Positions 1,572 to 22,273 are shown, counted from the stretch's first letter. The stretch is 24,000 nt of DNA from Alkalihalobacterium alkalinitrilicum (GCF_002019605.1 NZ_KV917368.1:2735517-2759516), one strand, 5' to 3'. A program made the numbers and translations. Notes: generated from the letters alone by a model not told the origin.

Positions 1572-1594
1572 ATAACCCCACCTCCAAATCAATC

Positions 1595-2626: not shown

Positions 2627-2628
2627 GT

Positions 2629-3879: not shown

Positions 3880-3888
3880 AAGAACCTC

Positions 3889-4629: not shown

Positions 4630-4634
4630 ATTTT

Positions 4635-6283: not shown

Positions 6284-6296
6284 TGAGGTCATCTCC

Positions 6297-7109: not shown

Positions 7110-7124
7110 TACATCCAACCCTTC

Positions 7125-7715: not shown

Positions 7716-7756
7716 AAGTCACCTCCATTTCCAGGCTCTATTTTTTGCTTCAAGTT

Positions 7757-7909: not shown

Positions 7910-7936
7910 TTCTTTCAACCCGACCTTTTAATAATT

Positions 7937-9004: not shown

Positions 9005-9045
9005 TTAATAAAACCCTTTCCATAGTTCAAGCGTGCTTAATTTGC

Positions 9046-9948
9046 TCAACTATTTTTTAATACTGTCGCCTTACCTGTATTTTGAATATACAAGTAAAGT
9101 AAAATTCCTAGTGGTGTTGCAAGAAATGTCGTCATTTTACAAGGTGACTCTAATAGAAATTTGTAGTTTTTAACCATGAGATTACTTGAAACATAGTGTA
9201 TGGATTCTCTGACTCTATCCTTAAAAGTTGGTGCATATTTCATTGCAACCTTTCTAAAAAAAGAAAAACCGCGGGGGTTTTTCTTATATTGCTTAATTAT
9301 ATTCATACTAGAACCATCATTTAGGTATTCCACGTGACATAATACTTCATTCATTATAAGTAACGGGAATTCTTGATCAATTAAAATATACTTATAACTT
9401 AATGGACAGTATTTTTCACCTGGGAATAACGGATACGGTGGTGTTTTTCTTGTAAGTTCCGTGCGATAAACGAGCTTTTTATCACCTTTCACTTTGTGCT
9501 TTCCGTATAAGTCAGAAAGTGGTGCACTCTTCAAGCGCTCTGGTAGTTTTGTTCCTATGATTTCACCATCTTGAGTAGCATCGAGTCCTACAATGCCCGC
9601 ATAATCCTTACTGCCATATTGCCTCCAAAACGTTAAAATCTTTTCAACTGCATCATCCGCCATATAATCGTCTGAATCAATGCACACATTAAGTTCCGTT
9701 TCAATTAATTCATACGCTGTATTATGAGCACCATGCATTCCTTGGTTTTCTTGATAGTGATAATGAATGGGAATAGCTCCTTCTAACATCCAACTTTCGA
9801 CGAGTTCCCTTGTATTATCAGTTGACCCATCATCGATTATTAACCATACGAAATCTTTACAAGTTTGTCTCTTCAAACTCTCATAACACAAGTGAAGACA
9901 ATAGGCTCGATTAAATGAAGGTGTAAACACCGTTAATGTTGCATTCAT
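9046..9948 (-). CDS. Glycosyltransferase family 2
   Basis: LTVFTPSFNRAYCLHLCYESLKRQ...LIIDDGSTDNT...IDSDD (DxD). GGAGG RBS 9 nt upstream of the ATG. Confidence 0.8.
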   Translation of the reverse strand: MNATLTVFTPSFNRAYCLHLCYESLKRQTCKDFVWLIIDDGSTDNTRELVESWMLEGAIPIHYHYQENQGMHGAHNTAYELIETELNVCIDSDDYMADDAVEKILTFWRQYGSKDYAGIVGLDATQDGEIIGTKLPERLKSAPLSDLYGKHKVKGDKKLVYRTELTRKTPPYPLFPGEKYCPLSYKYILIDQEFPLLIMNEVLCHVEYLNDGSSMNIIKQYKKNPRGFSFFRKVAMKYAPTFKDRVRESIHYVSSNLMVKNYKFLLESPCKMTTFLATPLGILLYLYIQNTGKATVLKNS

Positions 9949-9966
9949 TACTAAAAACCTCCATAT

Positions 9967-11097
9967 TTATGCTTGCTTCTTTTCAATGACACGACCTGTA
10001 TAGTAACCTGTAAGCCAATCAGCCATTGTTCCAGTATCATAACCACATTTTCGTAATAACTCGGATGTATCTTTATGCTCATAAGTTAATGATAAGATTT
10101 TGTTTGCCCATTGTTGTGGAGGTTCCTCTAATGGTAGAAATTCAACTCTGCCAGTAAGATCTGCTTCATTTGTAATCGTATTAGAGACAACACAATTTAA
10201 CCCAGCTGCCTGCGCTTCAACGAGGACTACTGGTAAACCTTCAAAAAGAGACGGAAATAAAAATAGATCAAATCCTTGCATTAAATTTGCAATATCTTCT
10301 CTAACACCTAAAAAGTGAACATGGGAATACAGCTTTAAATCATTGACTTTCTTTTCAATTTGCTGTCGTAAATGTCCATCTCCAACTAAAACGAGTACTG
10401 AGTCGGGCTGTTTATCTTGGACAGCTTTAAAAATATCAATTAAATATTCATGATTTTTTTGTTTATTAAATCTACCAATATGACCGATAACGAGTTTATT
10501 TTCTGCGTTTAGCTCTTCTCTCACTTTTTTACGTATGTTCTCGTTAAACTGAAACTCTTCAACATTCACCGCATTGTTTAACACTTTAACTTGCTGAGAT
10601 TTTGTAATCTTTTTACCAAACAACCACTCACCTGCTTGTTTTGAGCAAGCAAAATAGTGATTAGCATTATCTTTCATTGCTAATCTTGCATAAACTCTAA
10701 ACGGAAGTTTTAAGTCAAGTCCTAGGTCACTTAAGTGACTATGTGCAATTCGACATGGAACACCTGCTTTTTTGGCAGCGCGAAGGACAAAACTACTATT
10801 CTCGTTAATATGAGAATGAACGACTTGATATTCAGGATGGGCTCCAAAAAATTGATCAAGTTGTTTGAAGTACAAGTTATAATTCCCAGGTCGAATCTTC
10901 GGCATTCTGAAAACTTTACCACCAAGTGCCACTATTTCATCATCATAATGCCCTTTTTCCGTTCGATGGACTATAAAATCAAACTGTATTTTAGAGCGGT
11001 CGATCTTTCGGTAATAGTTCATTAACATCGTTTCAAGTCCGCCACGATTCATGATCGTTACGACTTGGAGGATACGTATCGGTTTCAGCGTAAACAC
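9967..11097 (-). CDS. epsF: Glycosyltransferase family 4, EpsF-like
   Basis: ILQVVTIMNRGGLETMLMNYYRKIDRSKIQFDF and FPSLFEGLPVVLVEAQAAGL match recalled B. subtilis EpsF. The start is a GTG at 11097 with GGAG directly abutting it (poor spacing), so the exact start is uncertain. Confidence 0.75.
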   Translation of the reverse strand: MFTLKPIRILQVVTIMNRGGLETMLMNYYRKIDRSKIQFDFIVHRTEKGHYDDEIVALGGKVFRMPKIRPGNYNLYFKQLDQFFGAHPEYQVVHSHINENSSFVLRAAKKAGVPCRIAHSHLSDLGLDLKLPFRVYARLAMKDNANHYFACSKQAGEWLFGKKITKSQQVKVLNNAVNVEEFQFNENIRKKVREELNAENKLVIGHIGRFNKQKNHEYLIDIFKAVQDKQPDSVLVLVGDGHLRQQIEKKVNDLKLYSHVHFLGVREDIANLMQGFDLFLFPSLFEGLPVVLVEAQAAGLNCVVSNTITNEADLTGRVEFLPLEEPPQQWANKILSLTYEHKDTSELLRKCGYDTGTMADWLTGYYTGRVIEKKQA

Positions 11098-11099
11098 TC

Positions 11100-12167
11100 C
11101 TATCTGATAATCTTTCGAAGTACTTCAATGCTTGATAACATTAAGTAAAAACCTAGAGCAAACCTTTGCTTTGCACAAAAATAAAACGCCCTCCACACTA
11201 TGGGGAATTGCCCCAACTCAAACTCTTTAAAGGAACGTTTAATTCGGTGATCATGTAGTATTTGGTTAAGTCTGTTGATTTTTGTAACAGGTGATCTTTT
11301 ATTAGCTTTACTTACCTCGTTTAAGCCAAGGCCTAACGTATTCATACTTATCCGATTATTTAGTGCTTGATAGAAGTCGTCACCCAAATCTTTTTCTTTT
11401 ATCAATTTTTCTATTATTTGATATAAATTTGACCAGTTGTCGATCAGCTTTGGTTTATACCCAGTTGTCACAGATGTTGAATTGACACGCCAATAATGAT
11501 AAAAAGGTTTATTGATAAAAGAAAATGTTTTCGTATAATAAAAAGCTTCGATATTAAATAATGAATCTTCGTTTGTCCCAATCACGCTTAAATCCGTAAA
11601 CGTGATGCCGTTATCTTTAATGATGTCGGCTCTATATAACTTAGACCAAACAGTTCCCCAAGCATCTAATAATTCTGGATTAGCTACTTCTTCTTTTAAT
11701 GGACCAACTAACCTTCTCATCACCTTTTCTTGAACATCATTTGCTTTATAAGTAATCTTTTCAGGCAAATTAAATTGTTTTTCCTTGGAGTGGCTGCCAA
11801 ACTCCCGCATATACGAACACATGACGATGTCGGCTCCATCTACTATTGCGGTTTCGTACATTTCTTCATACATTTCTTGATCCACCCAATCATCTGGATC
11901 AACGAAACCAATGAACTCGCCAGTTGCATTTGCTAGTCCTGCATTACGGGCTGACGAAACGCCACCATTTTCTTTGTCTATCACTTTAATCCGCTGATCC
12001 TTCGCAGCATACTCATGAAGAATGTCTAAGCTATTATCAGTAGACCCATCATTAACAGCAATAACCTCAATATCTAATAGCGTTTGGGATATTAAACTAT
12101 CAATAGATCTACTTAAATAATCTTCTACATTATATATGGGCATGATGATACTGACTTTTGGTTTCAT
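11100..12167 (-). CDS. Glycosyltransferase family 2
   Basis: VSIIMPIYNVEDYLSRSIDSLISQ...VNDGSTDNS...GFVDPDD. GGAGGAAG RBS. The ATG lies 38 nt inside the upstream epsD-like ORF. Confidence 0.85.
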   Translation of the reverse strand: MKPKVSIIMPIYNVEDYLSRSIDSLISQTLLDIEVIAVNDGSTDNSLDILHEYAAKDQRIKVIDKENGGVSSARNAGLANATGEFIGFVDPDDWVDQEMYEEMYETAIVDGADIVMCSYMREFGSHSKEKQFNLPEKITYKANDVQEKVMRRLVGPLKEEVANPELLDAWGTVWSKLYRADIIKDNGITFTDLSVIGTNEDSLFNIEAFYYTKTFSFINKPFYHYWRVNSTSVTTGYKPKLIDNWSNLYQIIEKLIKEKDLGDDFYQALNNRISMNTLGLGLNEVSKANKRSPVTKINRLNQILHDHRIKRSFKEFELGQFPIVWRAFYFCAKQRFALGFYLMLSSIEVLRKIIR

Positions 12168-13296
12168 TTTCTTCCTCCAGCATATAGCGTGTGTAGATGG
12201 TGCTTAGTTCTTGACTGATTTGTGAGAGGGAATAGGTGTTCATTAGGTTTATACTCGCTGCTCCCATTTGGCTTCGTAAGTCGGTATTTTGATAAATTCT
12301 TAGCAAGCCTCTCGCAAACTGCCCGTAGTCATGAGGAGATACGAGATAACCGTTCACTTGATCCTGAACGAGCTCGACATGGCCACGATTTTTACTTGCG
12401 ACAATCGGTAGTCCGCAGGCCATCGCTTCCATAATGTTGACGGGAAGCCCTTCTCTAAAGCTTGATCCGACAGCAATGTCACACATGGGAAGGATTTGGT
12501 CGATATCTTTTCGAAAGCCGAGAAAAACGACCATATGTTCAATTCCTAGTTGTTTGACGAGCTGCTTACAGCTTTCTTGAAGAGCGCCTTCGCCAGCGAG
12601 TAACAGCTTCGCGTTTGGCATATAGTCTTGAACTAAAGCAAGTGAGCGGATTAGCAATTGTTGGTTTTTATTTTTGTTAAATTCAGCTGCATAAAAGATG
12701 AAAAAGTCATCTGGATGATAGCCAAATGACTTTTTGCGTTCGCTTTTTTCAGTTTCAGTGATTGGTTTAAAGCGCTCTGTATCAACCCCCACTCCGTGAA
12801 CATGGTCGACTTCAATTGCTTTAAACTTGTGATGATTGGCTAATTGATAATCTTCTGCGTTGATCGTGATCAGACAATCGGTATACTTTGCCAACTGCTT
12901 TTCAATCGGATAATAGATGAGCCAATTTAAAGTGGGCGCTCCTTTACAAAAGTGAAAGCCATGTGCTGTATAAAGGACTTTTGTTCCAGATTTTCTAGCT
13001 TTTCGTGCGGCTAGCCTAGCAAGAACGCCTCCTAGCGGTGTATGACAATGGATGATGTCATAATCGTTTTCTTTAATAATTGCTTTTATTTGTTGATACG
13101 CCTTCACATTTTTCAACTTAAAAGGAGAGCGTTGAATTGGGATCCTAAACTTTTGATCCGTATACGGTAAATCAATTTCACCTTTAGCTGCGATGTGCAC
13201 TTCCCAGCCTTGCTCCTTAAACCATTTCATAAACGGTAAGTGAAAAGCCTTGAAATGATAGTCAACGGTTGCACAAAACAAAATTTTTTTAGGCAT
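12130..13296 (-). CDS. epsD: Glycosyltransferase family 4, EpsD-like
   Basis: The N-terminus KKILFCATVDYHFKAFHLPFMKWFKEQGWEVH is nearly identical to recalled B. subtilis EpsD. It also has the GT-B C-terminal EGLP motif. Confidence 0.82.
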   Translation of the reverse strand: MPKKILFCATVDYHFKAFHLPFMKWFKEQGWEVHIAAKGEIDLPYTDQKFRIPIQRSPFKLKNVKAYQQIKAIIKENDYDIIHCHTPLGGVLARLAARKARKSGTKVLYTAHGFHFCKGAPTLNWLIYYPIEKQLAKYTDCLITINAEDYQLANHHKFKAIEVDHVHGVGVDTERFKPITETEKSERKKSFGYHPDDFFIFYAAEFNKNKNQQLLIRSLALVQDYMPNAKLLLAGEGALQESCKQLVKQLGIEHMVVFLGFRKDIDQILPMCDIAVGSSFREGLPVNIMEAMACGLPIVASKNRGHVELVQDQVNGYLVSPHDYGQFARGLLRIYQNTDLRSQMGAASINLMNTYSLSQISQELSTIYTRYMLEEENETKSQYHHAHI

Positions 13297-13322
13297 TTAT
13301 ACCACCCATTCAAATCATTAAG

Positions 13323-14201
13323 TTATTTAATGAGTTCTTTTTCCATGACTTTTGATAAATATTCGAGTAAGTCATGCTTTAAATCTTCACGTTGAAGGGC
13401 AAACTCGATCGTTGTTTGAATAAAGCCCATTTTTTCACCAACATCATAACGGGTTCCTTCAAAATCATATGCGTAAACCGCTTCATATTCATTTAAGCCA
13501 CTAATGGCATCCGTTAACTGAATTTCTCCACCAGCTCCCGGCTTTTGTTTACTTAAGATGTCAAAGATTTTTGGACTTAAAATATACCGGCCTAAGATGG
13601 CTAGGTTTGACGGTGCTTCTTCCTGCTTTGGCTTTTCAACAAGATTGCTTACATTATAAAAACGTTCCCCGATGGACGTCGCATCAACAATCCCGTATCT
13701 TGAAACATCTTCATCTGCGACATGTTGAACACCGATAATCGAAGCATTATAACGCTCATATTGTTCCATCATTTGTTGCAAGCATGGCTTTTCGGCTTGA
13801 ACGATATCATCACCTAGTAAGACAGCAAATGGCTCATTACCAATAAATTTGCGAGCGCACCAGATTGCATGGCCTAACCCTTTTGGTTCCTTTTGCCTGA
13901 TATAATGGATGTCTACGAGTTTTGAAGATTTTTGAACTTCATTTAATAGTTCAAACTTGCCTTTTTCTAATAGATTTTGTTCTAATTCAAAAGAGTGGTC
14001 AAAATGATCTTCAATCGCTCGTTTACCCTTACCTGTAACGATAATAATATCTTCAATGCCAGATTCGATCGCTTCTTCAATAATATATTGGATCGTTGGT
14101 TTATCAACGATTGGTAACATCTCTTTTGGCATCGCTTTTGTCGCTGGGAGAAATCTTGTTCCTAACCCTGCAGCTGGAATAATCGCTTTTCTTACTTTCA
14201 T
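13323..14201 (-). CDS. gtaB: UTP-glucose-1-phosphate uridylyltransferase
   Basis: Canonical GalU/GtaB N-terminus [40 protein letters not shown] and VEKP motif. AAGGAG RBS. Confidence 0.93.
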
Positions 14202-14216
14202 TTACATGCACTCCTT

Positions 14217-16043
14217 TTAACTTGGGATTGTCAATAGTGGTTTAACGGAAACTTTGTTATTTGCTAAATTCAATAAAGCTTCCCTCAGTGTGTCTTTATC
14301 TAACTTTGAATAATTTTTAATAATCTCTTCAATTTCGGTCATGTAAAGTACTGATGTTTTTCCGATATAAATCATTGGATATACTTGCTCTTCTTGAACT
14401 TCTTCTTCTTTTAAAAGTTCTTCAAATAACTTCTCGCCTGGACGCATGCCACTAAATTCAATTTCGATTTCCTCTAGTGAGTTGCCCGATAATTTGATCA
14501 AGTTTTTCGCCAAGTCTACAATTTTGACAGGTTCGCCCATATCTAACACGAAAATTTCTCCGCCTTTCGCTAATGCTCCAGCTTGGATGACTAGGCGAGA
14601 AGCTTCTGGGATCGTCATAAAATAACGAACCATATCAGGGTGTGTTACCGTGACAGGTCCGCCTTTTTCAATCTGCTTTTTAAATAATGGGATGACGCTT
14701 CCTCGACTTCCTAATACGTTACCGAAACGGACAGCAACGAACTTCGTTTGGCTTTGATTATTCATATCTTGAATAATCATTTCTGCTAATCGTTTCGTAG
14801 CACCCATAACACTCGTTGGATTGACAGCTTTATCGGTTGAGATCATCACAAAGGTATCGACATGGTGTAAACTAGCTGCCATTGCTACATTCCTCGTACC
14901 GATTAAATTATTTTTGACAGCTTCTTCAGGGTTTCTTTCCATTAACGGAACATGTTTATGAGCAGCTGCATGATACACGACATCTGGATGATATGTATTC
15001 ATCACGGTTAGCATTTTATTGGCATCTTGTAAGTCGGCAATCTCAGTAATAAAATCAATATTCGTATGGACAAACGTCTCCTTTAATTCCATCTCAATCG
15101 AGTAAATGCTATTTTCGCCATGACCTAATAACACTAACTGCTTAGGATTAAAGTTTGAGATTTGCCGACACACTTCAGAACCAATTGAGCCTCCCGCACC
15201 TGTTACTAGAACGACCCTGTCAGTGATATATCCAGAAATTTTATCAATGTCGAGTTGGACAGGCTCACGGCCGAGTAAGTCCTCAACTTGGACATCGCGG
15301 AATTGATTAACTGAAACCTTTCCGGTGACAAGATCCTCTAACATCGGCATGATTTGCGCCTTTGCCTTTGTTTTCACACAAGCTTGAAAAATATCATTTA
15401 ACTCTTTTTTACTTAATGAAGGGATGGCGATGATAATATTTTCAATGTTTAACTTATTTACTGTTTCCTCGATTCCACTCGAACCACCAACGACAGGTAT
15501 TCCTAAAATATCTAATTGTTGTTTTTTCATATCATCATCAATAAAAGCAATAGGTAGTAACTCCCCGTCATTACTTTTTAAAAGTTGTCTCGCAACCATC
15601 GTTCCCGCAGAACCAGCACCGATGATGAGCGTTCTTTTTTTATTGTCTTCTTTATTCATATACGTATCACGATACATTCGCCAAACAAAGCGAGAACTTC
15701 CAATGAGTAAGATATGAAGCATCCACGTGATCGCTAACACGCGCAAGAATGTTTCTTGCAGGAAAAATTGCTGAACTAAAAATGCAGTAAGAATTGAAAA
15801 GGTAACGACTTTAAAAATGATTAATAGTTCCCCAATGCTCGCATACTCCCAGGCTTTTTTATACAGCTTTAGTACAATCGCAAAGAAATGATGACTCACT
15901 AATATAACGATTAGACTAGTAATGATCGGTAGTGTAAAAAAATTCAAGTCTGCTTTAACGAGAAAATGGCTGACAAAGATCGCCGTTAAAACAATACATG
16001 AATCAATGAGTATAAATAAGGAAAGCCTTTGCCGATACGTCAT
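14217..16043 (-). CDS. epsC: Membrane-anchored polysaccharide biosynthesis protein, UDP-GlcNAc 4,6-dehydratase type (EpsC/CapD/PglF-like)
   Basis: Four N-terminal TM helices followed by two Rossmann regions (IIGAGSAG; VTGAGGSIGSE). Also has the CapD-like core (YHAAAHKHVPLME, MISTDKAVNPTSVMGATKR). AGGAGGGG RBS. Confidence 0.9.
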   Translation of the reverse strand: MTYRQRLSLFILIDSCIVLTAIFVSHFLVKADLNFFTLPIITSLIVILVSHHFFAIVLKLYKKAWEYASIGELLIIFKVVTFSILTAFLVQQFFLQETFLRVLAITWMLHILLIGSSRFVWRMYRDTYMNKEDNKKRTLIIGAGSAGTMVARQLLKSNDGELLPIAFIDDDMKKQQLDILGIPVVGGSSGIEETVNKLNIENIIIAIPSLSKKELNDIFQACVKTKAKAQIMPMLEDLVTGKVSVNQFRDVQVEDLLGREPVQLDIDKISGYITDRVVLVTGAGGSIGSEVCRQISNFNPKQLVLLGHGENSIYSIEMELKETFVHTNIDFITEIADLQDANKMLTVMNTYHPDVVYHAAAHKHVPLMERNPEEAVKNNLIGTRNVAMAASLHHVDTFVMISTDKAVNPTSVMGATKRLAEMIIQDMNNQSQTKFVAVRFGNVLGSRGSVIPLFKKQIEKGGPVTVTHPDMVRYFMTIPEASRLVIQAGALAKGGEIFVLDMGEPVKIVDLAKNLIKLSGNSLEEIEIEFSGMRPGEKLFEELLKEEEVQEEQVYPMIYIGKTSVLYMTEIEEIIKNYSKLDKDTLREALLNLANNKVSVKPLLTIPS

Positions 16044-16066
16044 CTTGCCCCTCCTTTCTAATCGAT

Positions 16067-16210
16067 TTAATCTAGGGATAACGTCCTTCTTTCAATTGCA
16101 TATTCGACTAGTTTTTTGATCTCATCAAGTTCCTCTTGCGATGCATCTTGCTTTATATAACGAATTGCCTTCTTTATCGACTTAGGCAATCGATCAAAGT
16201 CTTTGGTCAT
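16067..16210 (-). CDS. Hypothetical 47-aa protein immediately upstream of epsC
   Basis: Below the track cut-off. ATG at 16210 with GAGGAG 7 nt upstream; TAA at 16069-16067, only 23 nt before the epsC ATG. Peptide MTKDFDRLPKSIKKAIRYIKQDASQEELDEIKKLVEYAIERRTLSLD. No family recognised. Confidence 0.45.
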   Translation of the reverse strand: MTKDFDRLPKSIKKAIRYIKQDASQEELDEIKKLVEYAIERRTLSLD

Positions 16211-16239
16211 ATCAACACTCCTCACTTTAGTTGGGAATT

Positions 16240-16291
16240 AAAAGTACTTAAGTTTACGGTCTTTCATAAAACCACATACTTAAGTACTTTT
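16240..16291. repeat. Perfect 14-bp inverted repeat (AAAAGTACTTAAGT / ACTTAAGTACTTTT) around a 24-nt loop
   Basis: Arms at 16240-16253 and 16278-16291 are exact reverse complements. Each arm is built from overlapping palindromes (AAGTACTT, ACTTAAGT). On the minus-strand transcript it forms an AU-rich hairpin ending in UUUU, between the structured-RNA candidate and the 47-aa ORF RBS. Confidence 0.8.
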
Positions 16292-16305
16292 ATTTAATAA
16301 AAAAT

Positions 16306-16415
16306 AGGGCATCTAACCCCTCCTCACACCATACTATCGACGACTTGCGTCTAAGGTTTGTCAACCCACAGCATGACCGAGTACCTCCGTTGATAATGGT
16401 AAGGAGGTATCACCA
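16306..16415 (-). ncRNA. Candidate EAR (eps-associated RNA / epsC motif) processive-antitermination element
   Basis: It lies in the epsB-epsC intergenic gap, where EAR sits in Bacillales eps operons, and is locally GC-rich compared with its AT-rich flanks. On the minus-strand RNA there is a hairpin GAUACCUCC (16411-16403) / GGAGGUACUC (16388-16379). Its 14-nt loop segment ACCAUUAUC can pair with the downstream GAUAGUAUGGU (16338-16328), giving 9 bp with a 2-nt bulge, i.e. a pseudoknot. Small hairpins GGUUGACAAACC and GACGCAAGUCGUC are also present. I did not compare it with the Rfam model. Confidence 0.4.
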
Positions 16416-16436
16416 AATTTGATTTTTATAACGCAC

Positions 16437-16458
16437 ATTATAATTCTCAATAAAGAAC
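16437..16458 (-). promoter_or_regulatory. Sin-type operator variant abutting a TATAAT hexamer, 20 nt downstream of the epsB stop
   Basis: Plus strand ATTCTCAATAAAGAAC (16443-16458) differs at one base from the reverse complement of the box at 20585-20600. On the minus strand it is followed directly by TATAAT (16442-16437). The -35 is poor (CTTAAC). Confidence 0.3.
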
Positions 16459-16478
16459 GTTAAGGTAAAAAAATATAG

Positions 16479-17174
16479 TTATGATTTTTCGTTTATAATC
16501 GCTCCGATCAGCTCGGCTTTGGCAAATTTTAAAACTTTCTTGGCCTCAACCGCTTTTTCGATCTTACTTTTACCATGTCTTAAAACTAGAACGACCGTCT
16601 TACATTGATTGGCTAAAAGCTTTGTATCTGATACTTCTAATAAAGGTGGTGAATCTATTAATATAACATCGTAGGATTGGGAAGCCGTTTCTAGTAAGCG
16701 AGAAAATGCGTTCGACCCTAATAACTCTGCTGGATTATCGGGGAGCGGTCCACTCGTTAACACCTCTAATTTCCCTATATTCGTTTCTTTCACCGCTTCT
16801 TCAAACCAGTTTTGATTCGTTAATACCGATGATAAACCTAGTGAATTATCGAGTTTAAAAATCGAATGAATTCTTGGGCTTCTTAAATCAGCATCAATGA
16901 TGAGAACTTTTTCTTTTTGTTGTGCGATGGAAACCGCTAGATTGGCAACTGTTGTTGATTTTCCCTCTTGTAAAGATGGAGACGTCATCAAGATAGTCTT
17001 ACTCGGCTTTTCATTTGCTGAAAATTGGATATTGGTTCGAATCGTTCGAAATTCTTCTGTAATAATCGACTCTGGGTTGGAAAATGTGATTAAATTTCGT
17101 TTTTGATTTTTATTAGTTATAACACTTTTAAGTCTTTTTAAGATCAACAATCTCACCTCGGTATTCTGTTTCAC
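16479..17174 (-). CDS. epsB: BY-kinase-type P-loop ATPase (EpsB/YwqD/CapB-like), without a C-terminal tyrosine cluster
   Basis: EEFRTIRTNIQF, Walker A (SPSLQEGKST), Walker A' (VLIIDADLR) and Walker B (DVILIDSPP). The track start at 17174 is a GTG. A TTG at 17147 has better spacing from GAGGTGA. The protein ends ...LIGAIINEKS. Confidence 0.82.
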   Translation of the reverse strand: MKQNTEVRLLILKRLKSVITNKNQKRNLITFSNPESIITEEFRTIRTNIQFSANEKPSKTILMTSPSLQEGKSTTVANLAVSIAQQKEKVLIIDADLRSPRIHSIFKLDNSLGLSSVLTNQNWFEEAVKETNIGKLEVLTSGPLPDNPAELLGSNAFSRLLETASQSYDVILIDSPPLLEVSDTKLLANQCKTVVLVLRHGKSKIEKAVEAKKVLKFAKAELIGAIINEKS

Positions 17175-17829
17175 GATGCTTCTTCTTTTTCTTATTAATA
17201 TTCTTTTTATTCATTTTTGAAACAGAGCCTAATATGGGAAGTCCTATTAATTCTTCTACGTCTCGATCCGAGCTAACTGTATCATCCAGAGAATTTAGTA
17301 AAAATACAAAGCCTGTTCCAATGACAAGTCCCATAATAAACGCAATATATATTGTTCTATTACTTTTACTATTGATTGGATATGGATTTACTTTCGCTTC
17401 AGACAAATAACTGACATCGTTAAAATCAACAATTTCTCCAATCTCATTTTTAAAAACCGTTGCAGTAGTATTGGCAATCTCTGCTGCTAAATTCGGATCT
17501 GTATCTATGACTGAAATTCTGACGACTTGTGAATTATCGATACTTTCAACCGTAATTTGCCCTGCTAATGCTTCTGGTGATCTCGTTAAGTTCAGTTCCA
17601 TGACGACCTTTTCCATGATAATCGAATCTCTCATAATAACTCTAAGTGTGTTCATATAATCTGAACTTGCACCTACGATTATGCGACTAGATGATTGGTA
17701 GAGAGATGTGATACTTGAAGAATTTTGAAAGTAGCCAGCAATTGTAGCAATCATCGTAATGACAACAATTATCCAAAAACGCTTTTTTATAATGAGAAAT
17801 ATTTCTCTTAAATTAATTTCTTTTGCCAT
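17128..17829 (-). CDS. epsA: Wzz/chain-length-determinant type transmembrane modulator (EpsA/YwqC/CapA-like)
   Basis: N-terminal TM helix (FWIIVVITMIATIAGYF), periplasmic-type middle region, second TM helix (IYIAFIMGLVIGTGFVFLL) and a basic cytoplasmic tail (KKNINKKKKKH). The track TTG at 17844 is rejected in favour of the ATG at 17829, which has GGAG 6 nt upstream. Confidence 0.82.
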   Translation of the reverse strand: MAKEINLREIFLIIKKRFWIIVVITMIATIAGYFQNSSSITSLYQSSSRIIVGASSDYMNTLRVIMRDSIIMEKVVMELNLTRSPEALAGQITVESIDNSQVVRISVIDTDPNLAAEIANTTATVFKNEIGEIVDFNDVSYLSEAKVNPYPINSKSNRTIYIAFIMGLVIGTGFVFLLNSLDDTVSSDRDVEELIGLPILGSVSKMNKKNINKKKKKHRETEYRGEIVDLKKT

Positions 17830-17869
17830 ATCGTTCTCCACCAACTTATTATTTGATTACTTTAGTGTA

Positions 17870-17885
17870 GTTCTCTTTAAAGAAC
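17870..17885. promoter_or_regulatory. Sin-type operator in the eps leader (GTTCTCTTTAAAGAAC)
   Basis: 16-bp imperfect palindrome (12/16 self-complementary) containing the published B. subtilis SinR consensus GTTCTYT. It lies 41-56 nt upstream of the epsA ATG. Confidence 0.5.
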
Positions 17886-17991
17886 AGTAAGACCAAAAAA
17901 ATTTGAAATAAATCTTATTTCCTACGAATTAAGTTTAATGTCTTAGTCATATAGAACTAATTGTTCAATTTGGAAAAATATTTCTAATGTC

Positions 17992-18020
17992 ATTTTAGTT
18001 CTTTATAAAGAACATGTCAA
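17992..18020 (-). promoter_or_regulatory. Sigma-A-type eps promoter with a perfect Sin-type palindrome in the spacer
   Basis: The minus strand reads TTGACA (18020-18015), then T + GTTCTTTATAAAGAAC (17-nt spacer, box at 18013-17998), then TAAAAT (17997-17992). The -35 is canonical with a 17-bp spacer, and the -10 matches 5/6. Confidence 0.6.
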
Positions 18021-18033
18021 TAGAAAAGTTTCT

Positions 18034-18399
18034 TTATTCGCAAAATTCATTATGGCTTACTTTCTTACTTTGATTTTTCATATGATCCAACTTTTGAATC
18101 ATATCTCTTAGTTCTTCTAAACTAATATTTTTTCGTTTCATTTCTTCGGTTAGGTGGATGAGTTGGATATCTACTACGTTTTCTTTAGTACTTGTCTTAC
18201 TTTGTCCATTAAAAAAATAAGCGATATCAATTTTAAAGTAGTTTGATAGACTTTCTAAAACTTCAATAGCAGGCTTCCGATTTCCGCGTTCAATTTTTGA
18301 TAAATTACTATAATTAAATTCAATTGCATCCCCTAATTCTTTTAATGTCATCCCATGGCTTAGTCGCAAATCTTTAATTCTCTCTCCAATATGCTTCAA
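18034..18399 (-). CDS. XRE-family HTH regulator with a C-terminal Sin-like helical region (SlrR-like candidate)
   Basis: N-terminal HTH_3 pattern (IKDLRLSHGMTLKELGDAIEFNYSNLSKIERGNRKP). The C-terminus LIHLTEEMKRKNISLEELRDMIQKL loosely resembles the SinI/SinR interaction helices. TTG start at 18399 supported by GGAGTGAG 6 nt upstream. It sits next to epsA, as slrR does in B. subtilis. Confidence 0.7.
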   Translation of the reverse strand: MKHIGERIKDLRLSHGMTLKELGDAIEFNYSNLSKIERGNRKPAIEVLESLSNYFKIDIAYFFNGQSKTSTKENVVDIQLIHLTEEMKRKNISLEELRDMIQKLDHMKNQSKKVSHNEFCE

Positions 18400-18438
18400 T
18401 ACTGTCTCACTCCATTACTTCTTAAATAATCCGCTTTC

Positions 18439-18497
18439 GTTCGTTACAAAGAACACAGTTTCGCTGTTACTATACCATGGATTGTCAAATTGAACAA
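18439..18497 (-). promoter_or_regulatory. Putative extended -10 promoter of the XRE gene plus a downstream Sin-type box
   Basis: Minus strand: TTGTTC (18497-18492), 17 nt, TGG-TATAGT (-10 at 18474-18469, TGn extension). Box GTTCGTTACAAAGAAC (18439-18454, 12/16 palindromic) lies just downstream of the predicted start. A further variant GTTCTTTTTATAGAGC sits at 18516-18531. Confidence 0.35.
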
Positions 18498-18649
18498 TAT
18501 ATAACTTTAGATTTTGTTCTTTTTATAGAGCTTTTTTTGTGAAAATCACATATTTCTATATATTAATTTACATTAATTGAACAAAAATACCACTAAAACG
18601 AATGCTTTGAAAAAAATGTTAAATTATATAATTTTTTTACAACTAACTA

Positions 18650-18681
18650 TTGTAATTACTTATCTGTTCTATATAATGAAC
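18650..18681 (+). promoter_or_regulatory. Putative promoter of the first sinI-like ORF, overlapped by a Sin-type box
   Basis: TTGTAA (18650-18655), 16 nt, TATAAT (18672-18677). The box GTTCTATATAATGAAC (18666-18681, 12/16 palindromic) contains the -10. Confidence 0.4.
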
Positions 18682-18719
18682 ATATAGATGTTATTTCATA
18701 TCGATGGGGGACGATATAT

Positions 18720-18878
18720 ATGAAGTATATTCAACCAATAAATCAAGTTAGAACACTCGATGAGGAATGGATCCAACTTATAAAATGTGCAAAAGACATC
18801 GGCCTCAAACCTGATGATGTAAAAAAATTTCTAGGTCAATTCGAAAAGGACAAAAAAATAGCACAAAACAAAAACTAG
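18720..18878 (+). CDS. SinI/SlrA-like anti-repressor, 52 aa
   Basis: Not in the ORF track. Peptide MKYIQPINQVRTLDEEWIQLIKCAKDIGLKPDDVKKFLGQFEKDKKIAQNKN. It carries the Sin interaction motif LDxEWxxLIxxAKxxGLxxxxVKKFL seen in B. subtilis SinI (LDQEWVELMVEAKEANISPEEIRKYL). GGGGG lies 9 nt upstream. Confidence 0.7.
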   Translation: MKYIQPINQVRTLDEEWIQLIKCAKDIGLKPDDVKKFLGQFEKDKKIAQNKN

Positions 18879-18914
18879 ACTTAATTCGTAATATACATTA
18901 TGAATTAAGTCTAG
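18875..18914 (+). terminator. Hairpin after the first sinI-like ORF (possible weak intrinsic terminator)
   Basis: Perfect 13-bp stem CTAGACTTAATTC (18875-18887) / GAATTAAGTCTAG (18902-18914) with a 14-nt loop, followed by TTTC. The stem is AT-rich and the U-tract short. Confidence 0.4.
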
Positions 18915-19153
18915 TTTCAAAAGACCTTTACTCTTCTAATTTTTATTTTACTATATTTACACTATTACTAATTTAGTAATACATATAGGTATTTATAACT
19001 ATAAAATAATTCTCTTGATCTAGGAAAACCTTGTAGAATTTTTGCTTTTTTTCGTATATTTACACCTAAACTAATACGAAATGACAATTTCTTAACTACT
19101 AAAAACCAACAGCAAGACCTGTACCATGCGTCTTTAATCTTCCCATAAGTAAA

Positions 19154-19160
19154 TGTCGAA
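19154..19160 (+). promoter_or_regulatory. Exact Spo0A-box consensus heptamer TGTCGAA
   Basis: Exact match to the 0A-box consensus TGNCGAA, about 200 nt upstream of sinI. In B. subtilis, sinI is Spo0A-activated. A single 7-mer could occur by chance. Confidence 0.3.
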
Positions 19161-19362
19161 TGGATAGCATGACTATATTTATGACTTCAGTAACTAATAT
19201 CTTTTCCAAATTTTATATATAATTAATTTAACCTTAATATTGGACGTTTTAATTTATGTAACATGGCACTCTTAAAAATCTGAATATTCTCAATAATTAA
19301 GTGAATACCTACACCATTGTTAAAGGATAATAGGCCTGTTTTAAGATTAGGGAGGTAATATC

Positions 19363-19485
19363 ATGAATACTAAGACCCATGAGGTTTTAGACAATGAATG
19401 GACAGCTCTTATGAGGGAAGCAAAAGATCTAGGAATAACGATTGAGGAAGTAAAGGAATATCTTAAAAACAGTAGAAAGACATGA
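19363..19485 (+). CDS. sinI: SinI anti-repressor, 40 aa
   Basis: Not in the ORF track. Peptide MNTKTHEVLDNEWTALMREAKDLGITIEEVKEYLKNSRKT with the LDxEWxxLMxEAKxxGIxxEEVKxYL motif. GGAGG RBS at 19351-19355. It lies 81 nt upstream of sinR, the canonical sinI-sinR arrangement. Confidence 0.82.
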   Translation: MNTKTHEVLDNEWTALMREAKDLGITIEEVKEYLKNSRKT

Positions 19486-19492
19486 CCTCTCA

Positions 19493-19528
19493 GTTCTATT
19501 TACAGAACTAGCTTAAAACTGTTATAAT
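19493..19528 (+). promoter_or_regulatory. Internal sinR promoter (P3-like) overlapped by a Sin-type box
   Basis: TTTACA (19499-19504), 18 nt, TG-T-TATAAT (extended -10, hexamer at 19523-19528). The box GTTCTATTTACAGAAC (19493-19508, 12/16 palindromic) covers the -35. Confidence 0.45.
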
Positions 19529-19566
19529 TCCTATAAGTACACAGGTTAAGAGAGGAATCGATACAG

Positions 19567-19902
19567 ATGATCGGTGAAAAAGTCAAGAAATTACGCTTAG
19601 AAAAGGGCTTATCTTTATCTGAACTAGCAGAATCTGCTGGAGTTGCAAAGTCTTACTTAAGTTCAATTGAAAGAAACATCCAATCGAATCCTTCGATACA
19701 ATTCCTTGAAAAGATCTCAAAAGTTTTAGGTGTAAGCGTCGAGACCGTATTAAACGAAAATAATGAAAAACAATCGGTAACCGAATACGACCTAGACTCT
19801 GCTTGGATCGAGTTAGTCAAAGAAGCTATGGAGTCAGGTGTGAGTAAAGAGCAATTCCGTGAATACTTGGAATTTAATAAATGGCGTAAACACAATAGTT
19901 AA
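19567..19902 (+). CDS. sinR: SinR master biofilm repressor
   Basis: 111 aa, collinear with recalled B. subtilis SinR: MIG...KGxSLSELAExAGVAKSYLSSIERNxQxNPSIQFLEKxSxVLxVSV and C-terminal SGVSKxQFRExLxxxKWRK. Confidence 0.92.
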   Translation: MIGEKVKKLRLEKGLSLSELAESAGVAKSYLSSIERNIQSNPSIQFLEKISKVLGVSVETVLNENNEKQSVTEYDLDSAWIELVKEAMESGVSKEQFREYLEFNKWRKHNS

Positions 19903-19962
19903 ACTCCATTATCTCCCCTTTAGCAACCAAAGAAAACAATATTTAACAAGTCCGTTTTCAAT

Positions 19963-20004
19963 AAAAAAATACCCCGCCTCATTACATCGAGGTGGGTTAT
20001 TTTT
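19963..20004. terminator. Bidirectional intrinsic terminator shared by convergent sinR and the HTH-only gene
   Basis: A-tract (19963-19969), stem CCCGCCTC (19973-19980) / GAGGTGGG (19989-19996) with an 8-nt loop, then TTATTTTT. On the minus strand the stem has one A-C mismatch but is followed by U7. It overlaps the last codons of the minus-strand ORF. Confidence 0.7.
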
Positions 20005-20212
20005 CTTCTGGGGTATTCAAAACCTTAATTAAATAAACAAGTTCAACACCAAGGGACTGTGCCAATTTTTCTAACACAGAAATGCTTGGATTAGTTTGTA
20101 GTCCACGTTCAATGTAACTGAGATATGACTTTGAAATACCTGACAGCTCTGAGAGTCGATCTAAAGACATTCCTTTCTTTTTTCGTAACTCTCTAATATT
20201 CCCCCCATTCAT
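19997..20212 (-). CDS. HTH-only SinR paralog (71 aa XRE-family DNA-binding domain, no C-terminal Sin interaction region)
   Basis: KGMSLDRLSELSGISKSYLSYIERGLQTNPSISVLEKLAQSLGVEL aligns residue for residue with the SinR HTH region encoded at 19567-19902. The protein stops about 10 aa after the HTH domain. AGGAGAG RBS 6 nt before the ATG. Confidence 0.75.
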   Translation of the reverse strand: MNGGNIRELRKKKGMSLDRLSELSGISKSYLSYIERGLQTNPSISVLEKLAQSLGVELVYLIKVLNTPEEK

Positions 20213-20247
20213 TTGTATCTCTCCTTTTTATTATGATCATCGCCCTC

Positions 20248-20260
20248 AAAAAAAAAAAAA
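20248..20260. repeat. A13 (T13 on the transcribed minus strand) homopolymer
   Basis: Thirteen consecutive A bases between the stop of the 95-aa ORF (20263) and the RBS of the HTH-only gene. Confidence 0.9.
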
Positions 20261-20262
20261 CT

Positions 20263-20550
20263 CTAGTATACTTCAAATCTCATTTCGTAGTAATAATCAT
20301 CCGTTTGATTTTTTTTTATTGAAGTAAGGATCATACCGTATATTTCAATTCCGTCTAACAATTTTAATGACACTTTATAAATTACATCCTCTGAAACTGG
20401 AAACTTTAAAGAACTTATAAATATTAGTGATGTTGTTGTAAATTCAACTATTTCTACTTTTGTACATTTAGAGTCGACAACCTTTCCTTTCACGACATGA
20501 ATGATGAGCTCTGCTTGAATGGGGTTGTCAATTGTAAATTCCGTCGTCAA
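20263..20550 (-). CDS. Small beta-rich protein, degenerate PilZ-like (tentative)
   Basis: 95 aa. TTG start with a strong AAGGAGG 8 nt upstream. Alternating beta-strand pattern ...KVEIVEFTTTSLIFISSLKFPVSEDVIYKVSLKLLDGIEIYGMILTSIKK....YYYEMRFE resembles the PilZ barrel (DxSxxG-strand, hairpins, final Y.F strand). It lacks the RxxxR and DxSxxG c-di-GMP motifs. Confidence 0.55.
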   Translation of the reverse strand: MTTEFTIDNPIQAELIIHVVKGKVVDSKCTKVEIVEFTTTSLIFISSLKFPVSEDVIYKVSLKLLDGIEIYGMILTSIKKNQTDDYYYEMRFEVY

Positions 20551-20584
20551 TTACCTGTCCTCCTTAAAAGTTTTTTACACCACT

Positions 20585-20630
20585 GTTCTTTATAGAGAAT
20601 ATTATAGTTTATTTGTTCTTTATAGTAAAC
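20585..20630 (-). promoter_or_regulatory. Putative promoter of the 95-aa ORF bracketed by two Sin-type boxes
   Basis: Minus strand TTTACT (20629-20624), 17 nt, TATAAT (20606-20601). Box GTTCTTTATAGAGAAT (20585-20600) abuts the -10 and covers the predicted start. Box GTTCTTTATAGTAAAC (20615-20630) covers the -35 and spacer. The boxes share TGTTCTTTATAG as a direct repeat exactly 30 bp apart. Confidence 0.45.
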
Positions 20631-20730
20631 GATATAATAGTAACTAGTTCATTAAAATGAAATCAGGTCTTTTATACTAAGTGATTACACTTTTGTTTTT
20701 ACTAACTTATTTATATAAGGCTCGTTTTAA

Positions 20731-20772
20731 GCACAAAAAAATGATAGAACAAAGTAAAAATGTTCTATCATT
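20731..20772 (-). terminator. Intrinsic terminator of the aldehyde dehydrogenase operon
   Basis: Perfect 11-bp stem (20762-20772 / 20740-20750) with an 11-nt loop. It is followed on the minus strand by a 7-U run, about 70 nt after the ALDH stop. Confidence 0.7.
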
Positions 20773-20839
20773 CTTCCTGCCTTTATTTTTTCATTTCATT
20801 TGGTTCTGTTTATAAAATGTGTGACAACATAATCATGGA

Positions 20840-22273
20840 TCAAAGATTAAAACAAACAACTTTCGGTTCGGTCATTTCTTGAATCGAATGTCTGACACCT
20901 TCTCGGCCTAATCCAGATCCTTTGACTCCGCCGAATGGCATGCTGTCAATACGGAAGTCGCTGCTGTCGTTTACCATTACCCCGCCAACATTGAGCTGTT
21001 GGATGGCTTCAAATGCGGATTGTAAATGGTTCGTGAAAATTCCTGCTTGTAAGCCATAATTGACGTCGTTAGATCGTTCGATGGCATCTTGTAAACTCTT
21101 TACTTCAAAAAGTAGTACGACAGGTCCGAAGATTTCTTCTTTTGCAATGGTTGCATCAGCAGGTACATTTGTTAATACCGTCGGTTCATAATAAGCTCCT
21201 TCACGTTGACCACCACATTCTAGTATAGCGCCTTGTTTTATCGCTTCATTGACGAGGTTTTCCACGCGGATTGCTTCTCTTTCATTAATCAATGGACCCA
21301 TATCTGTACTTTCCATTAACTTGCCACCTGTTTGATACAAAGTCGTCCGTTTAATAAATTGAATTTTAAATTCCTTAAATATATCTCGTTCTATATAAAT
21401 TCGTTGTACACCTAAACAGTTTTGACCAGCGGCCCAAAATGCACCTGATACGGTAGACTCAACGGCTTGATTTAAGTCAGCATCGTTGAGAACGATCACG
21501 GGCGAGTTCGAACCGAGTTCCATGCTTAATTTTTTTAGCCCTGCCTTTTTGGCAATTTCTGTTCCCGTTTCTAATCCACCAGTAAACGAAATCATTCTCA
21601 CGTCAGGATGAGTAACGAGTGTATCACCCACTTCTCCTCCTCTCCCTGTAATGACCGAGAGAATGCCATTGGGAAGACCCGCTTTTGAAAACACGTTTGC
21701 TAGCTTTAATGCACTTAATGGGGTGACAGTTGCAGGTTTTACAATAATGGCATTGCCCGATGCAATGGCAGGGCCAATTTTATGAGCGACTAAGTTAAGC
21801 GGGTCGTTAAATGGGGTAATGGCTCCGATGATCCCAATCGGAAAGAGAGAATAGTAGCCTAACCGATTTTCATTTCCACTACTTTGATCAAAGGGAATCG
21901 TCTTCCCTTCTAATCGCCGGGCTTCTTCGGCACTTATTCGCAAAGTTTGAATGCAACGTTCGACTTCTTTTCGTGCTTCACGTATCGTTTTACTTCCTTC
22001 TAAAGCGATCGTTACTGCAAATTCTTCACGTTCTTCTTCTATAAAAGTCGCTGCACGTTGAATAATCTCGATTCGTTTATAAACAGGGAGTTTGGCCGAA
22101 ATGAGAGCACCTCTTTTGGCTGATTTAATTGCATCTAGCATATCGTCTTGCGTCGCAGCTGGAACTGTCGCAATAGCTTCATTATTTTCTGGGTTCGTTA
22201 CTGTGATCGTCTGGTCTCGGTCCACCCACTTTCCGGCGAGAAACATTTTTCGTTGTGCCACTCGAACTTTCAT
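20840..22273 (-). CDS. NAD(P)-dependent aldehyde dehydrogenase family protein
   Basis: 477 aa. Catalytic Glu (SMELGSNSP) and Cys (GQNCLGVQR) motifs, FTGG, EEIFGPV and PFGGVKGSGLGREG. AAAGGTGGG RBS. Confidence 0.9.
   Translation of the reverse strand: MKVRVAQRKMFLAGKWVDRDQTITVTNPENNEAIATVPAATQDDMLDAIKSAKRGALISAKLPVYKRIEIIQRAATFIEEEREEFAVTIALEGSKTIREARKEVERCIQTLRISAEEARRLEGKTIPFDQSSGNENRLGYYSLFPIGIIGAITPFNDPLNLVAHKIGPAIASGNAIIVKPATVTPLSALKLANVFSKAGLPNGILSVITGRGGEVGDTLVTHPDVRMISFTGGLETGTEIAKKAGLKKLSMELGSNSPVIVLNDADLNQAVESTVSGAFWAAGQNCLGVQRIYIERDIFKEFKIQFIKRTTLYQTGGKLMESTDMGPLINEREAIRVENLVNEAIKQGAILECGGQREGAYYEPTVLTNVPADATIAKEEIFGPVVLLFEVKSLQDAIERSNDVNYGLQAGIFTNHLQSAFEAIQQLNVGGVMVNDSSDFRIDSMPFGGVKGSGLGREGVRHSIQEMTEPKVVCFNL

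Follow-up and report, generated by a model that had tools for sequence, protein, structure and literature searches.

A sin switch locus joined to the head of an eps operon in Alkalihalobacterium alkalinitrilicum, with a hook-less SinR-type protein as putative feedback repressor

The window considered here is a stretch of 24,000 nucleotides (nt) from Alkalihalobacterium alkalinitrilicum. As judged from sequence comparison, it contains a sin (SinI/SinR) switch locus that is joined to the head of an eps-type exopolysaccharide operon and enlarged by three extra genes. The full gene order is eps and XRE121 (leftward), then sinI52, sinI40 and sinR (rightward), and then HTH71, orf95 and an aldehyde dehydrogenase gene (leftward). 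On the reading that is regarded as probable, SinR would run the whole island, two SinI peptides would release it, and HTH71, a SinR-type DNA-binding domain without the SinR hook, would act as a feedback repressor immune to SinI. The initial annotation of the window had described five open reading frames (ORFs), from XRE121 to HTH71; their limits agree exactly with the six-frame list from which the ORFs were taken and their identities hold, while orf95, just outside the span then described, and the operator array had been missed. The HTH71 and XRE121 proteins are 100% identical to A. alkalinitrilicum proteins annotated merely as 'helix-turn-helix domain-containing protein'. No publication on this locus, on SinR paralogues consisting of a helix-turn-helix (HTH) domain only, or on sin genes in alkaliphiles was found in the literature searched. 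Coordinates are collected in Table 1.

The evidence that ties the island together is an array of predicted operators. SinR of Bacillus subtilis has the consensus GTTCTYT and binds the inverted repeat GTTCTCT-AA-AGAGAAC with a dissociation constant of 300 nM (PMC3163267). The window was scanned with the pattern GTTCTYTWWARAGAAC, a palindrome of 16 base pairs (bp) of the form GTTCTYT-WW-ARAGAAC, whose 7+2+7 layout is that of the B. subtilis inverted-repeat operator, and mismatches were counted. At up to three mismatches, 14 sites were found against 3.04 +/- 1.65 expected. At up to two mismatches there were ten sites (two of them perfect), all of which lie in the 2,841 intergenic bases that make up 12% of the window, and shuffled sequences had 0.03 such sites on average and never more than one. 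Eight of the ten fall within 17870-20630.

These sites were compared across 80 Bacillaceae sinR loci, eleven of which, from Alkalihalobacterium, A. bogoriensis and Halalkalibacter, are close to the island; the genome scan returned no locus from A. alkalinitrilicum itself (best SinR match among the loci returned, 89%). Four of the eleven come from relatives in the Alkalihalobacterium clade (L001-L004). The whole eps promoter block, with a perfect box filling its spacer, is invariant in four species, and the two boxes of the divergent XRE121/sinI52 control region keep their positions in L001, L002 and L004 with one or two mismatches. All eleven related loci have at least one box with no more than one mismatch within about 150 bp upstream of orf95. 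Per 12 kb, seven to nine boxes were counted in the four Alkalihalobacterium-clade loci and at least two in all eleven, with a median of one over the 80 Bacillaceae loci. The comparison shows predicted SinR-type operators on or beside every island promoter, at positions conserved across species and genera, and it strongly backs the suggestion, made in the initial annotation, of a self-contained switch next to its target. The further suggestion made there, of a possible rewiring with added layers of competition or titration, is a hypothesis.

The SinR of the window gives 140 bits against B. subtilis SinR (1B0N_A) over residues 1-109, and the segment VAKSYLSSIERN is identical. Its hook-core residues are conserved, and of the tetramerization residues E97, Y101, W104 and R105 (PMC3163267), only Y101 is changed, to F. 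By these comparisons, the SinR of the window and the master biofilm repressor of B. subtilis are true orthologues. The Pfam SinI family (PF08671) has a gathering score of 31.4 bits, which is exceeded by the SinR C-terminus and by both short ORFs, so that the assignment of SinI40 and SinI52 to this family survived the hidden Markov model (HMM) check (Table 1). Neither reached the 80-bit cut-off of the NCBIfam SinI equivalog model NF046031 (35 bits for SinI40, 32 bits for SinI52), and they are classed here, from sequence, as members of the SinI family and not as equivalogs by the NCBI threshold. When aligned to the residues described in PMC3163267, both keep the hook-core positions (W, L, V/I/M, A, V/I/L, F/V, F/Y, L) and are predicted, by analogy, to bind the SinR hook and to dissolve the SinR tetramer. 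Orthologues of sinI40 are present in 11 loci and those of sinI52 in L001-L004.

Two further features lie in the spacers around these genes. An 18-nt block TATGACTTCAGTAACTAA (19180-19197), invariant in five species, precedes a TATAAT-like -10 by about 20 nt and sinI40 by about 165 nt; it corresponds to neither the sin box nor the Spo0A box and is a candidate site for an activator of sinI40. An AT-rich hairpin at 18872-18917, with 21-nt arms that are 95% complementary, begins at the sinI52 stop codon. It has a T-rich tail on the minus but not the plus strand, its left arm is not conserved in relatives, and it could be a terminator of sinI52 or a minus-strand terminator within the 484-bp spacer. 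An Rfam search over 17000-21500 at the E-value threshold returned two chance-level matches only, and the long spacers gave no known RNA.

The description of HTH71 as an HTH-only SinR paralogue, outside the textbook circuit, stands. Its best solved relative is the SinR N-domain (55.7 bits), and because the ORF ends at the terminator that it has in common with sinR, there is no space for a C-terminal domain. All 12 HTH71 orthologues are 68-91 amino acids (aa) long and without a Sin domain; all 100 of 100 bootstraps recovered them as a monophyletic clade, which branches in the same pattern as the SinR tree. HTH71 retains the SinR-type recognition-helix residues K28, S29, Y30, R36, Q39, N41 and S43. 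The roles of the DNA-contact residues were taken from PMC6123443, according to which SinR requires K28 to recognize the sin box and has S43 at the dimer interface of its N-domain. A prophage or Cro origin of HTH71 was considered and rejected: the best phage match is 56 bits at 46% identity, with no close relative, and the locus is syntenic in 12 chromosomes.

Upstream of HTH71 and on the same strand lies orf95. Its Halalkalibacter orthologues, of about 125 aa, end at the HTH71 ribosome-binding site, and no conserved promoter lies between the two genes; hence, they are taken to form an operon. The orf95 family is rare: a search of 1.8 billion proteins gave 17 representatives at E <= 1e-3. The protein itself matches no Pfam family, PilZ (PF07238) included, and five of the 17 family members do match PilZ, with a best E-value of 1.4e-9. 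The structure model of orf95 has a mean predicted local distance difference test (pLDDT) score of 83.6, and its Foldseek matches in PDB are mostly PilZ domains (BcsA, MotI, MrkH, YcgR) at template modelling (TM) scores of about 0.6-0.7; B. subtilis MotI is matched at 0.69-0.70, and the Foldseek E-values are only about 1e-3. By its model, orf95 has the PilZ beta-barrel fold. The RxxxR and [DN]xSxxG motifs for cyclic di-guanosine monophosphate (c-di-GMP) are absent from orf95 and its close orthologues and present in the distant members P0050-P0053. As both motifs have been lost, c-di-GMP binding by orf95 is doubtful. Directly after the orf95 stop codon and before the HTH71 ribosome-binding site, there is a run of 14 A (20247-20260; T14 on the gene strand), which has no preceding hairpin and is not seen in the orthologous loci; it could influence how much transcription continues into HTH71, or it could be prone to slippage.

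XRE121 starts with TTG, immediately precedes epsA and is flanked by sin boxes. It had been credited with a Sin-like C-terminus, and here the methods divided: profile-profile comparison, predicted helices and Foldseek supported it, and Pfam and the local HMM did not. As the two latter are blind to the XRE121 hook, profile-profile and fold comparison were required. An alignment of 22 family members contains the conserved block xxLIxLSEEMKxKNISLEELxEL, and the family profile aligns in hook register with the SinI-domain profile (hhalign; 93% probability, E 2.8e-7, score 30.2), as against a maximum score of 17.1 among 100 column shuffles. Distant family members retain the hook tryptophan, for example P0032 with DWVKLSEEMKQKNITLQEIREF, for which the local SinI HMM gives 14.4 bits. 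The AlphaFold model (pLDDT 80.9) has two C-terminal helices, and its top Foldseek match in PDB is SinR 1B0N_A. Profiles and model together indicate that XRE121 carries a real but diverged C-terminal two-helix hook.

The DNA-binding domain of XRE121 is of a different lineage. It scores only 25 bits against SinR, shares 37-40% identity with SinR/SlrR-like domains and is an outgroup to all of them in the tree. Its nearest solved relative by sequence (49 bits) is 9sf2_A, phage phi106 AimC in complex with its anti-repressor AimX, which blocks AimC oligomerization in a manner likened by its authors to SinR/SinI (bioRxiv 10.1101/2025.11.23.689978). In B. subtilis, slrR adjoins epsA-O and is repressed by SinR, and SlrR has two hooks (PMC3917956). 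In Neobacillus drentensis, Cytobacillus suaedae and Anaerobacillus isosaccharinicus, too, eps is directly preceded by a gene of the XRE121 family that is flanked by sin boxes, and this recurrence in four genera in total makes it a positional analogue of SlrR.

It was asked whether any island protein is SlrR itself, that is, an eps-adjacent protein under SinR control with a SinR-like DNA-binding domain followed by two consecutive hooks. XRE121 has the position and, judging from its boxes, the control, but it has an outgroup HTH and one hook; HTH71 has no hook. None of the three HTH proteins reaches the 250-bit cut-off of the NCBIfam SlrR model NF046032 (XRE121 30.1 bits; HTH71 61.5, N-domain only; SinR 71.5). 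On this comparison XRE121 is not an SlrR orthologue. The opposite view, that it is one and that the island is the B. subtilis circuit with its genes brought together, is very unlikely. The eps-adjacent position, the flanking sin boxes, the hook-like C-terminus and a weak but full-length alignment to the SlrR model (30 bits) all speak in its favor, but they are outweighed by the distance of that score from the cut-off, the outgroup position of the HTH domain, a recognition helix (NYSNLSKIERGNRKP) unlike the SinR type, the single hook and a closest solved relative that is AimC and not SinR.

Two side observations concern the same family. In Neobacillus drentensis (L081 4257-4616) and Cytobacillus suaedae (L082 4348-4707), a 119-aa SinR-like protein with an HTH and a SinI domain is encoded divergently from the XRE121-family eps leader; the helix of the L082 protein is VSKSYLSYIERN, and in both genera this protein may be the true SlrR-type partner. 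A second motif, ATTGTTCARTTTGRMAA, also written ATTGTTCAATTTG(G/A)(A/C)AA, occurs at 17960-17976 (plus strand), just downstream of the eps -10, and at 18482-18498 (minus strand), in the XRE121/sinI52 control region, with both copies kept in four species. The motif may be an operator of XRE121; no copies were found beyond the two from which it was derived, and it consequently has no statistical support.

The arrangement is maintained across species. Three of the four other Alkalihalobacterium-clade species genomes recovered keep the full gene order, namely those of Alkalihalobacillus sp. BA299, A. chitinilyticum and A. elongatum (L001, L002 and L004). The core of sinI, sinR, HTH71 and orf95 is found in 12 species, including A. 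bogoriensis and six Halalkalibacter-clade species, and in two of these latter core loci eps is divergent from orf95. The island is thus not a one-off, but it has not been described in the literature searched. In the remaining 69 of the 80 Bacillaceae loci, there is either sinI-sinR or a sinR gene convergent with a sinI-like ORF, and both HTH71 and orf95 are absent. All five genes of the initial annotation are preceded by Shine-Dalgarno sequences, as read from the sequence, and are intact ORFs in related species. Their ratios of nonsynonymous to synonymous substitution rates (dN/dS) are below 1: 0.04-0.06 for SinR, 0.04-0.09 for HTH71, 0.10-0.40 for SinI40, 0.30-0.53 for SinI52 and 0.12-0.20 for XRE121, values that are rough because dS is near saturation. 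These ratios indicate that purifying selection acts on every one of these island genes.

The following scheme is proposed. By analogy with B. subtilis, a SinR tetramer would occupy the sin boxes, shut off eps, XRE121, sinI52 and orf95-HTH71 and damp its own synthesis; SinI40 and SinI52 would, on the same model, bind the SinR hook, break the tetramer and free all these promoters. Release of sinI52 would yield more anti-repressor because a sin box lies on its own -10, and this feed-forward latch may take the place of the SlrR-SinR double-negative loop. XRE121, with its differing recognition helix and one diverged hook, would be the eps-leader regulator and may partner a SinI-type peptide or SinR. 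HTH71 has no hook, so SinI could not bind it. It would be produced only while SinR is off and would then re-occupy the sin boxes as a SinI-immune repressor, so that matrix expression would be limited or ended by negative feedback with a delay, and orf95 would provide a non-transcriptional output, plausibly a MotI-type brake on motility or on the synthase. The parts assigned to HTH71 and orf95 are the least certain of the scheme.

Several observations weigh against it. SinR residues 1-69 alone are a monomer, oligomerization residing in the C-domain and the dimer contacts being too weak at low concentration (PMC3163267); lacking a hook, HTH71 may therefore have a weak affinity for sin boxes or need a high concentration to bind them. 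It also differs from SinR by the changes S33Y and N37G in or beside the recognition helix, and its target could differ. Neighbor-joining bootstraps gave no supported sister group for the HTH71 clade and did not divide an origin as a truncated SlrR from one as a truncated SinR. For XRE121, the hook tryptophan is lost and the C-terminus gave no SinI match by Pfam or by the local SinI HMM (163 domains) at E <= 1e-3. Control of sinI40 by Spo0A found little support: there is one TGTCGAA at 19154, exact only in L001 and near-exact in L003, and the number of such sites is not enriched (three found, 2.94 expected), so that this partly conserved site was not used as evidence. Finally, a sin-box-like palindrome stands upstream of sinR in 30 of the 80 Bacillaceae loci; hence, this feature is not special to the island, and the probable autoregulation of SinR is not unique to this clade.

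The changes in the HTH71 recognition helix lend themselves to another explanation, in which HTH71 has drifted in specificity and works as a Cro-like counter-repressor: it would mainly shut the sinR promoter, and perhaps the sinI promoters, through GTTCTAT-type boxes, SinR would shut orf95-HTH71, and the SinI peptides would flip the toggle. The SinR boxes on the orf95-HTH71 promoter in all 12 genomes fit this, as do the separate, strictly conserved box variant GTTCTATTTACAGAAC over the sinR -35, the clade-specific S33Y and N37G, the membership of the SinR N-domain in the 434 cI/Cro fold class, and the extended arbitrium module, which has an equal cast and is compared by its authors with SinR/SinI (bioRxiv 10.1101/2025.11.23.689978). 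It is nevertheless considered unlikely. The sinR and HTH71 genes are convergent and have no common divergent operator region, unlike cI/cro or aimC/aimL; many Bacillaceae without HTH71 have such boxes upstream of sinR; and the conservation of the sinR-promoter box may merely reflect the -35 hexamer that it encloses. A fuller version, a chromosomal cI/Cro-type toggle in which SinR represses orf95-HTH71, SinI-immune HTH71 represses sinR and the sinI genes through the variant boxes, the SinI peptides flip the state, and orf95 acts on the flagellar motor or a polysaccharide synthase without c-di-GMP, is less likely still. If true, it would be a biofilm/motility switch with phage-style logic and a signal-blind PilZ effector.

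Cross-talk with SinR is dispensed with altogether if HTH71 is a local regulator only, an autoregulator or a partner of orf95, whose targets are unrelated to sin boxes and whose place beside sinR reflects duplication ancestry. Small HTH-only XRE proteins often autoregulate their own operons, C.AhdI and C.BclI are among the PDB matches of HTH71, and the HTH71 clade is old and well apart from SinR (47-55% identity). This is doubtful, however, as HTH71 keeps the recognition-helix residues for sin-box reading, and the sin boxes are the only conserved palindromes at its own promoter, so that even autoregulation would use sin-type sites. Far less credible is the view that sinI52 and HTH71 are functionless, decaying duplicates clustered by an accident of gene order. 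The dN/dS of sinI52 is the highest of the set (0.30-0.53) and the peptide falls under the NCBIfam equivalog cut-off, as decay would predict, but in all related genomes both ORFs remain intact and have strong Shine-Dalgarno sequences, the dN/dS of HTH71 is as low as that of SinR, its length and architecture are kept in 12 species of several genera, and operators are conserved at the promoters of both genes. SinR control of the whole island, with release by the SinI peptides and feedback by HTH71, is the reading retained here.

The proposed target, the eps operon, extends over most of the window. Besides the products listed in Table 1, it encodes a nucleotidyl transferase, GT4 and GT2 glycosyltransferases, an EpsG-family protein, a sugar transferase, an aminotransferase and a pyruvyl transferase, the last being the product of its final gene (405-1592). 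A 435-bp gap (16044-16478) between the kinase gene and the epsC-like gene contains one sin box, kept in three related species, which suggests an internal SinR-controlled promoter for the biosynthetic genes.

Table 1 Features of the window, with position, strand and the basis or conservation of each assignment
Feature	Position	Strand	Basis or conservation
eps-type exopolysaccharide operon, proposed switch target	405-17844	-	NCBIfam and Pfam matches
EpsC-like dehydratase gene	14217-16043	-	NCBIfam/Pfam
Tyrosine autokinase gene	16479-17174	-	NCBIfam/Pfam
Chain-length determinant gene (epsA end of operon)	17128-17844	-	NCBIfam/Pfam
XRE121, 121 aa, XRE-family HTH regulator leading the eps operon	18034-18399	-	Pfam HTH_3 48.1 bits
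sinI52, 52 aa, second SinI-family anti-repressor peptide	18720-18878	+	Pfam SinI PF08671 43.1 bits
sinI40, 40 aa, SinI anti-repressor directly upstream of sinR	19363-19485	+	Pfam SinI PF08671 49.5 bits
sinR, 111 aa	19567-19902	+	Pfam HTH_3 63.0 bits and SinI 54.5 bits
Bidirectional terminator common to sinR and HTH71: G+C-rich hairpin, T-runs on both strands	19973-19996		Predicted from sequence
HTH71, 71 aa, SinR-type DNA-binding domain without hook	19997-20212	-	Pfam HTH_3 67.8 bits, no other match
orf95, 95 aa, degenerate single-domain PilZ-fold protein, first gene of the orf95-HTH71 operon	20263-20550	-	Fold model and family
Sin box GTTTTTTAAAGTGAAC, 2 mismatches, intergenic beyond last eps gene	107-122		Pattern scan
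Sin box ATTCTCAATAAAGAAC, 2 mismatches, gap between kinase gene and epsC-like gene	16443-16458		Position kept in L001, L002, L004
Perfect sin box GTTCTCTTTAAAGAAC, epsA 5' leader, about 25 bp before epsA start	17870-17885		Conserved in L001, L002, L004
Predicted eps promoter: -35 TTGACA 18020-18015, -10 TAAAAT 17997-17992	17992-18020	-	Promoter scan, 11/12 matches
Perfect sin box GTTCTTTATAAAGAAC filling eps promoter spacer	17998-18013		Pattern scan
Two sin boxes, 2 mismatches each, divergent XRE121/sinI52 control region	18439-18454, 18516-18531		Pattern scan
Predicted sinI52 promoter TTGTAA, 16 nt, TATAAT	18650-18681	+	Promoter scan
Sin box GTTCTATATAATGAAC over sinI52 -10	18666-18681		Sequence identical in L001-L004
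Predicted sinR promoter TTTACA, 18 nt, TG-TATAAT	19493-19528	+	Promoter scan
Sin box GTTCTATTTACAGAAC covering sinR -35, between sinI40 and sinR	19493-19508		Identical in 7/11 related loci
Predicted orf95-HTH71 promoter TTTACT, 17 nt, TATAAT	20629-20601	-	Promoter scan
Two sin boxes at orf95-HTH71 promoter: over -35 (20615-20630) and just downstream of -10 (20585-20600)	20585-20630	-	Pattern scan

Elsewhere the sin locus is plastic. Alkalihalobacterium sp. APHAB7 (L003) has three SinI-like ORFs, and XRE and eps are absent on that side. Upstream of this locus (L003 475-2450), three sin boxes (at 1569, 1706 and 1727) separate a sortase gene from a divergent gene for a 340-aa protein without a Pfam match; this protein may belong to the surface or matrix, depend on sortase and be under SinR control. 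In Oceanobacillus halophilus (L020 4343-4588), sinR is preceded by an independent HTH-only SinR-like ORF of 81 aa, and two Alteribacillus species (L035 6493-7014; L046 6383-6878) have a second convergent pair consisting of a full-length SinR-like and a SinI-like gene. Pseudalkalibacillus caeni (L030) combines eps, sinI-sinR, a second SinR-like gene and two further SinI-like ORFs with ten sin boxes in 12 kb.

The SinI/SinR/SlrR circuit is a main model of a bistable cell-fate choice in bacteria and, to our knowledge, has been studied in hardly any organisms other than B. subtilis and those of the B. cereus group. The island suggests that alkaliphilic Bacillaceae carry the same SinI/SinR core with different wiring, and that SinR(1-69), a laboratory fragment, has a natural counterpart here, whose gene is under predicted SinR control beside that of a PilZ-fold protein lacking the c-di-GMP motifs. 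It also predicts a compact regulon marked by a clean 16-bp palindrome. Because circuit and target lie within about 3 kb, they could be moved as one piece into B. subtilis, a transfer that could show how a DNA-binding domain immune to the anti-repressor shapes a bistable switch.

On comparing the island with the SinI-SinR-SlrR-SlrA system of B. subtilis, it is found that SinR is orthologous, that the hook peptides are of the SinI family and that the operators are GTTCTYT-type inverted repeats of 16 bp. Both systems have a hook-bearing HTH regulator beside eps that is repressed by SinR (here predicted from the boxes) and two anti-repressor peptides, one of them directly upstream of sinR. The initial annotation had set the clustering against a B. 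subtilis circuit dispersed over separate loci. This is partly correct, but slrR already adjoins epsA-O there (PMC3917956), so a Sin-type regulator next to eps is a known layout. Differences are nonetheless evident: sinI-sinR adjoins eps instead of tapA-sipW-tasA, the regulator next to eps belongs to another XRE lineage and has one hook, which is diverged, the gene for the second anti-repressor is part of this locus and its promoter bears a sin box, another sin box spans the sinR -35, and there is an extra sin-boxed operon for a hook-less SinR-type HTH protein and a degenerate PilZ protein. What is new is sinIR beside eps, a second sin-boxed SinI gene in the locus, an eps leader of another lineage and the sin-boxed operon of HTH71 and orf95. 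The sin locus of Clostridioides difficile reportedly has two adjacent SinR-type genes, one paralogue modulating the other; the antagonist SinR' is said to retain both domains and to act by protein-protein binding, whereas HTH71 is entirely without an interaction domain.

Outside the Sin family, the island resembles the cI-Cro switches of phages 434 and lambda in having an oligomerizing repressor together with an HTH-only paralogue of the same fold class whose promoter bears the operators of that repressor. It differs in that its genes are convergent, without a tripartite shared operator, and in that it would be flipped by peptide anti-repressors and not by cleavage. Arbitrium AimC/AimX/AimL (PDB 9sf2) likewise consists of an HTH repressor with a helical C-terminal oligomerization domain, a small helical peptide that blocks oligomerization and an HTH-only partner, the Cro-like AimL. 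Here, by contrast, the genes are chromosomal, syntenic in 12 species and without phage context, and the HTH-only gene is convergent with sinR and not divergent; AimR and AimP genes are absent from the window, whose neighboring genes are eps and metabolic genes, and only the repressor architecture is held in common. Lastly, orf95 shares its modelled PilZ beta-barrel fold with MotI (DgrA/YpfA, PDB 5vx6) and other PilZ proteins, and distant members of its family keep the c-di-GMP motifs; it differs from them in being a single 95-aa domain that fails the Pfam PilZ model and is without both motifs, and in its sin-box promoter and predicted co-transcription with a regulator.

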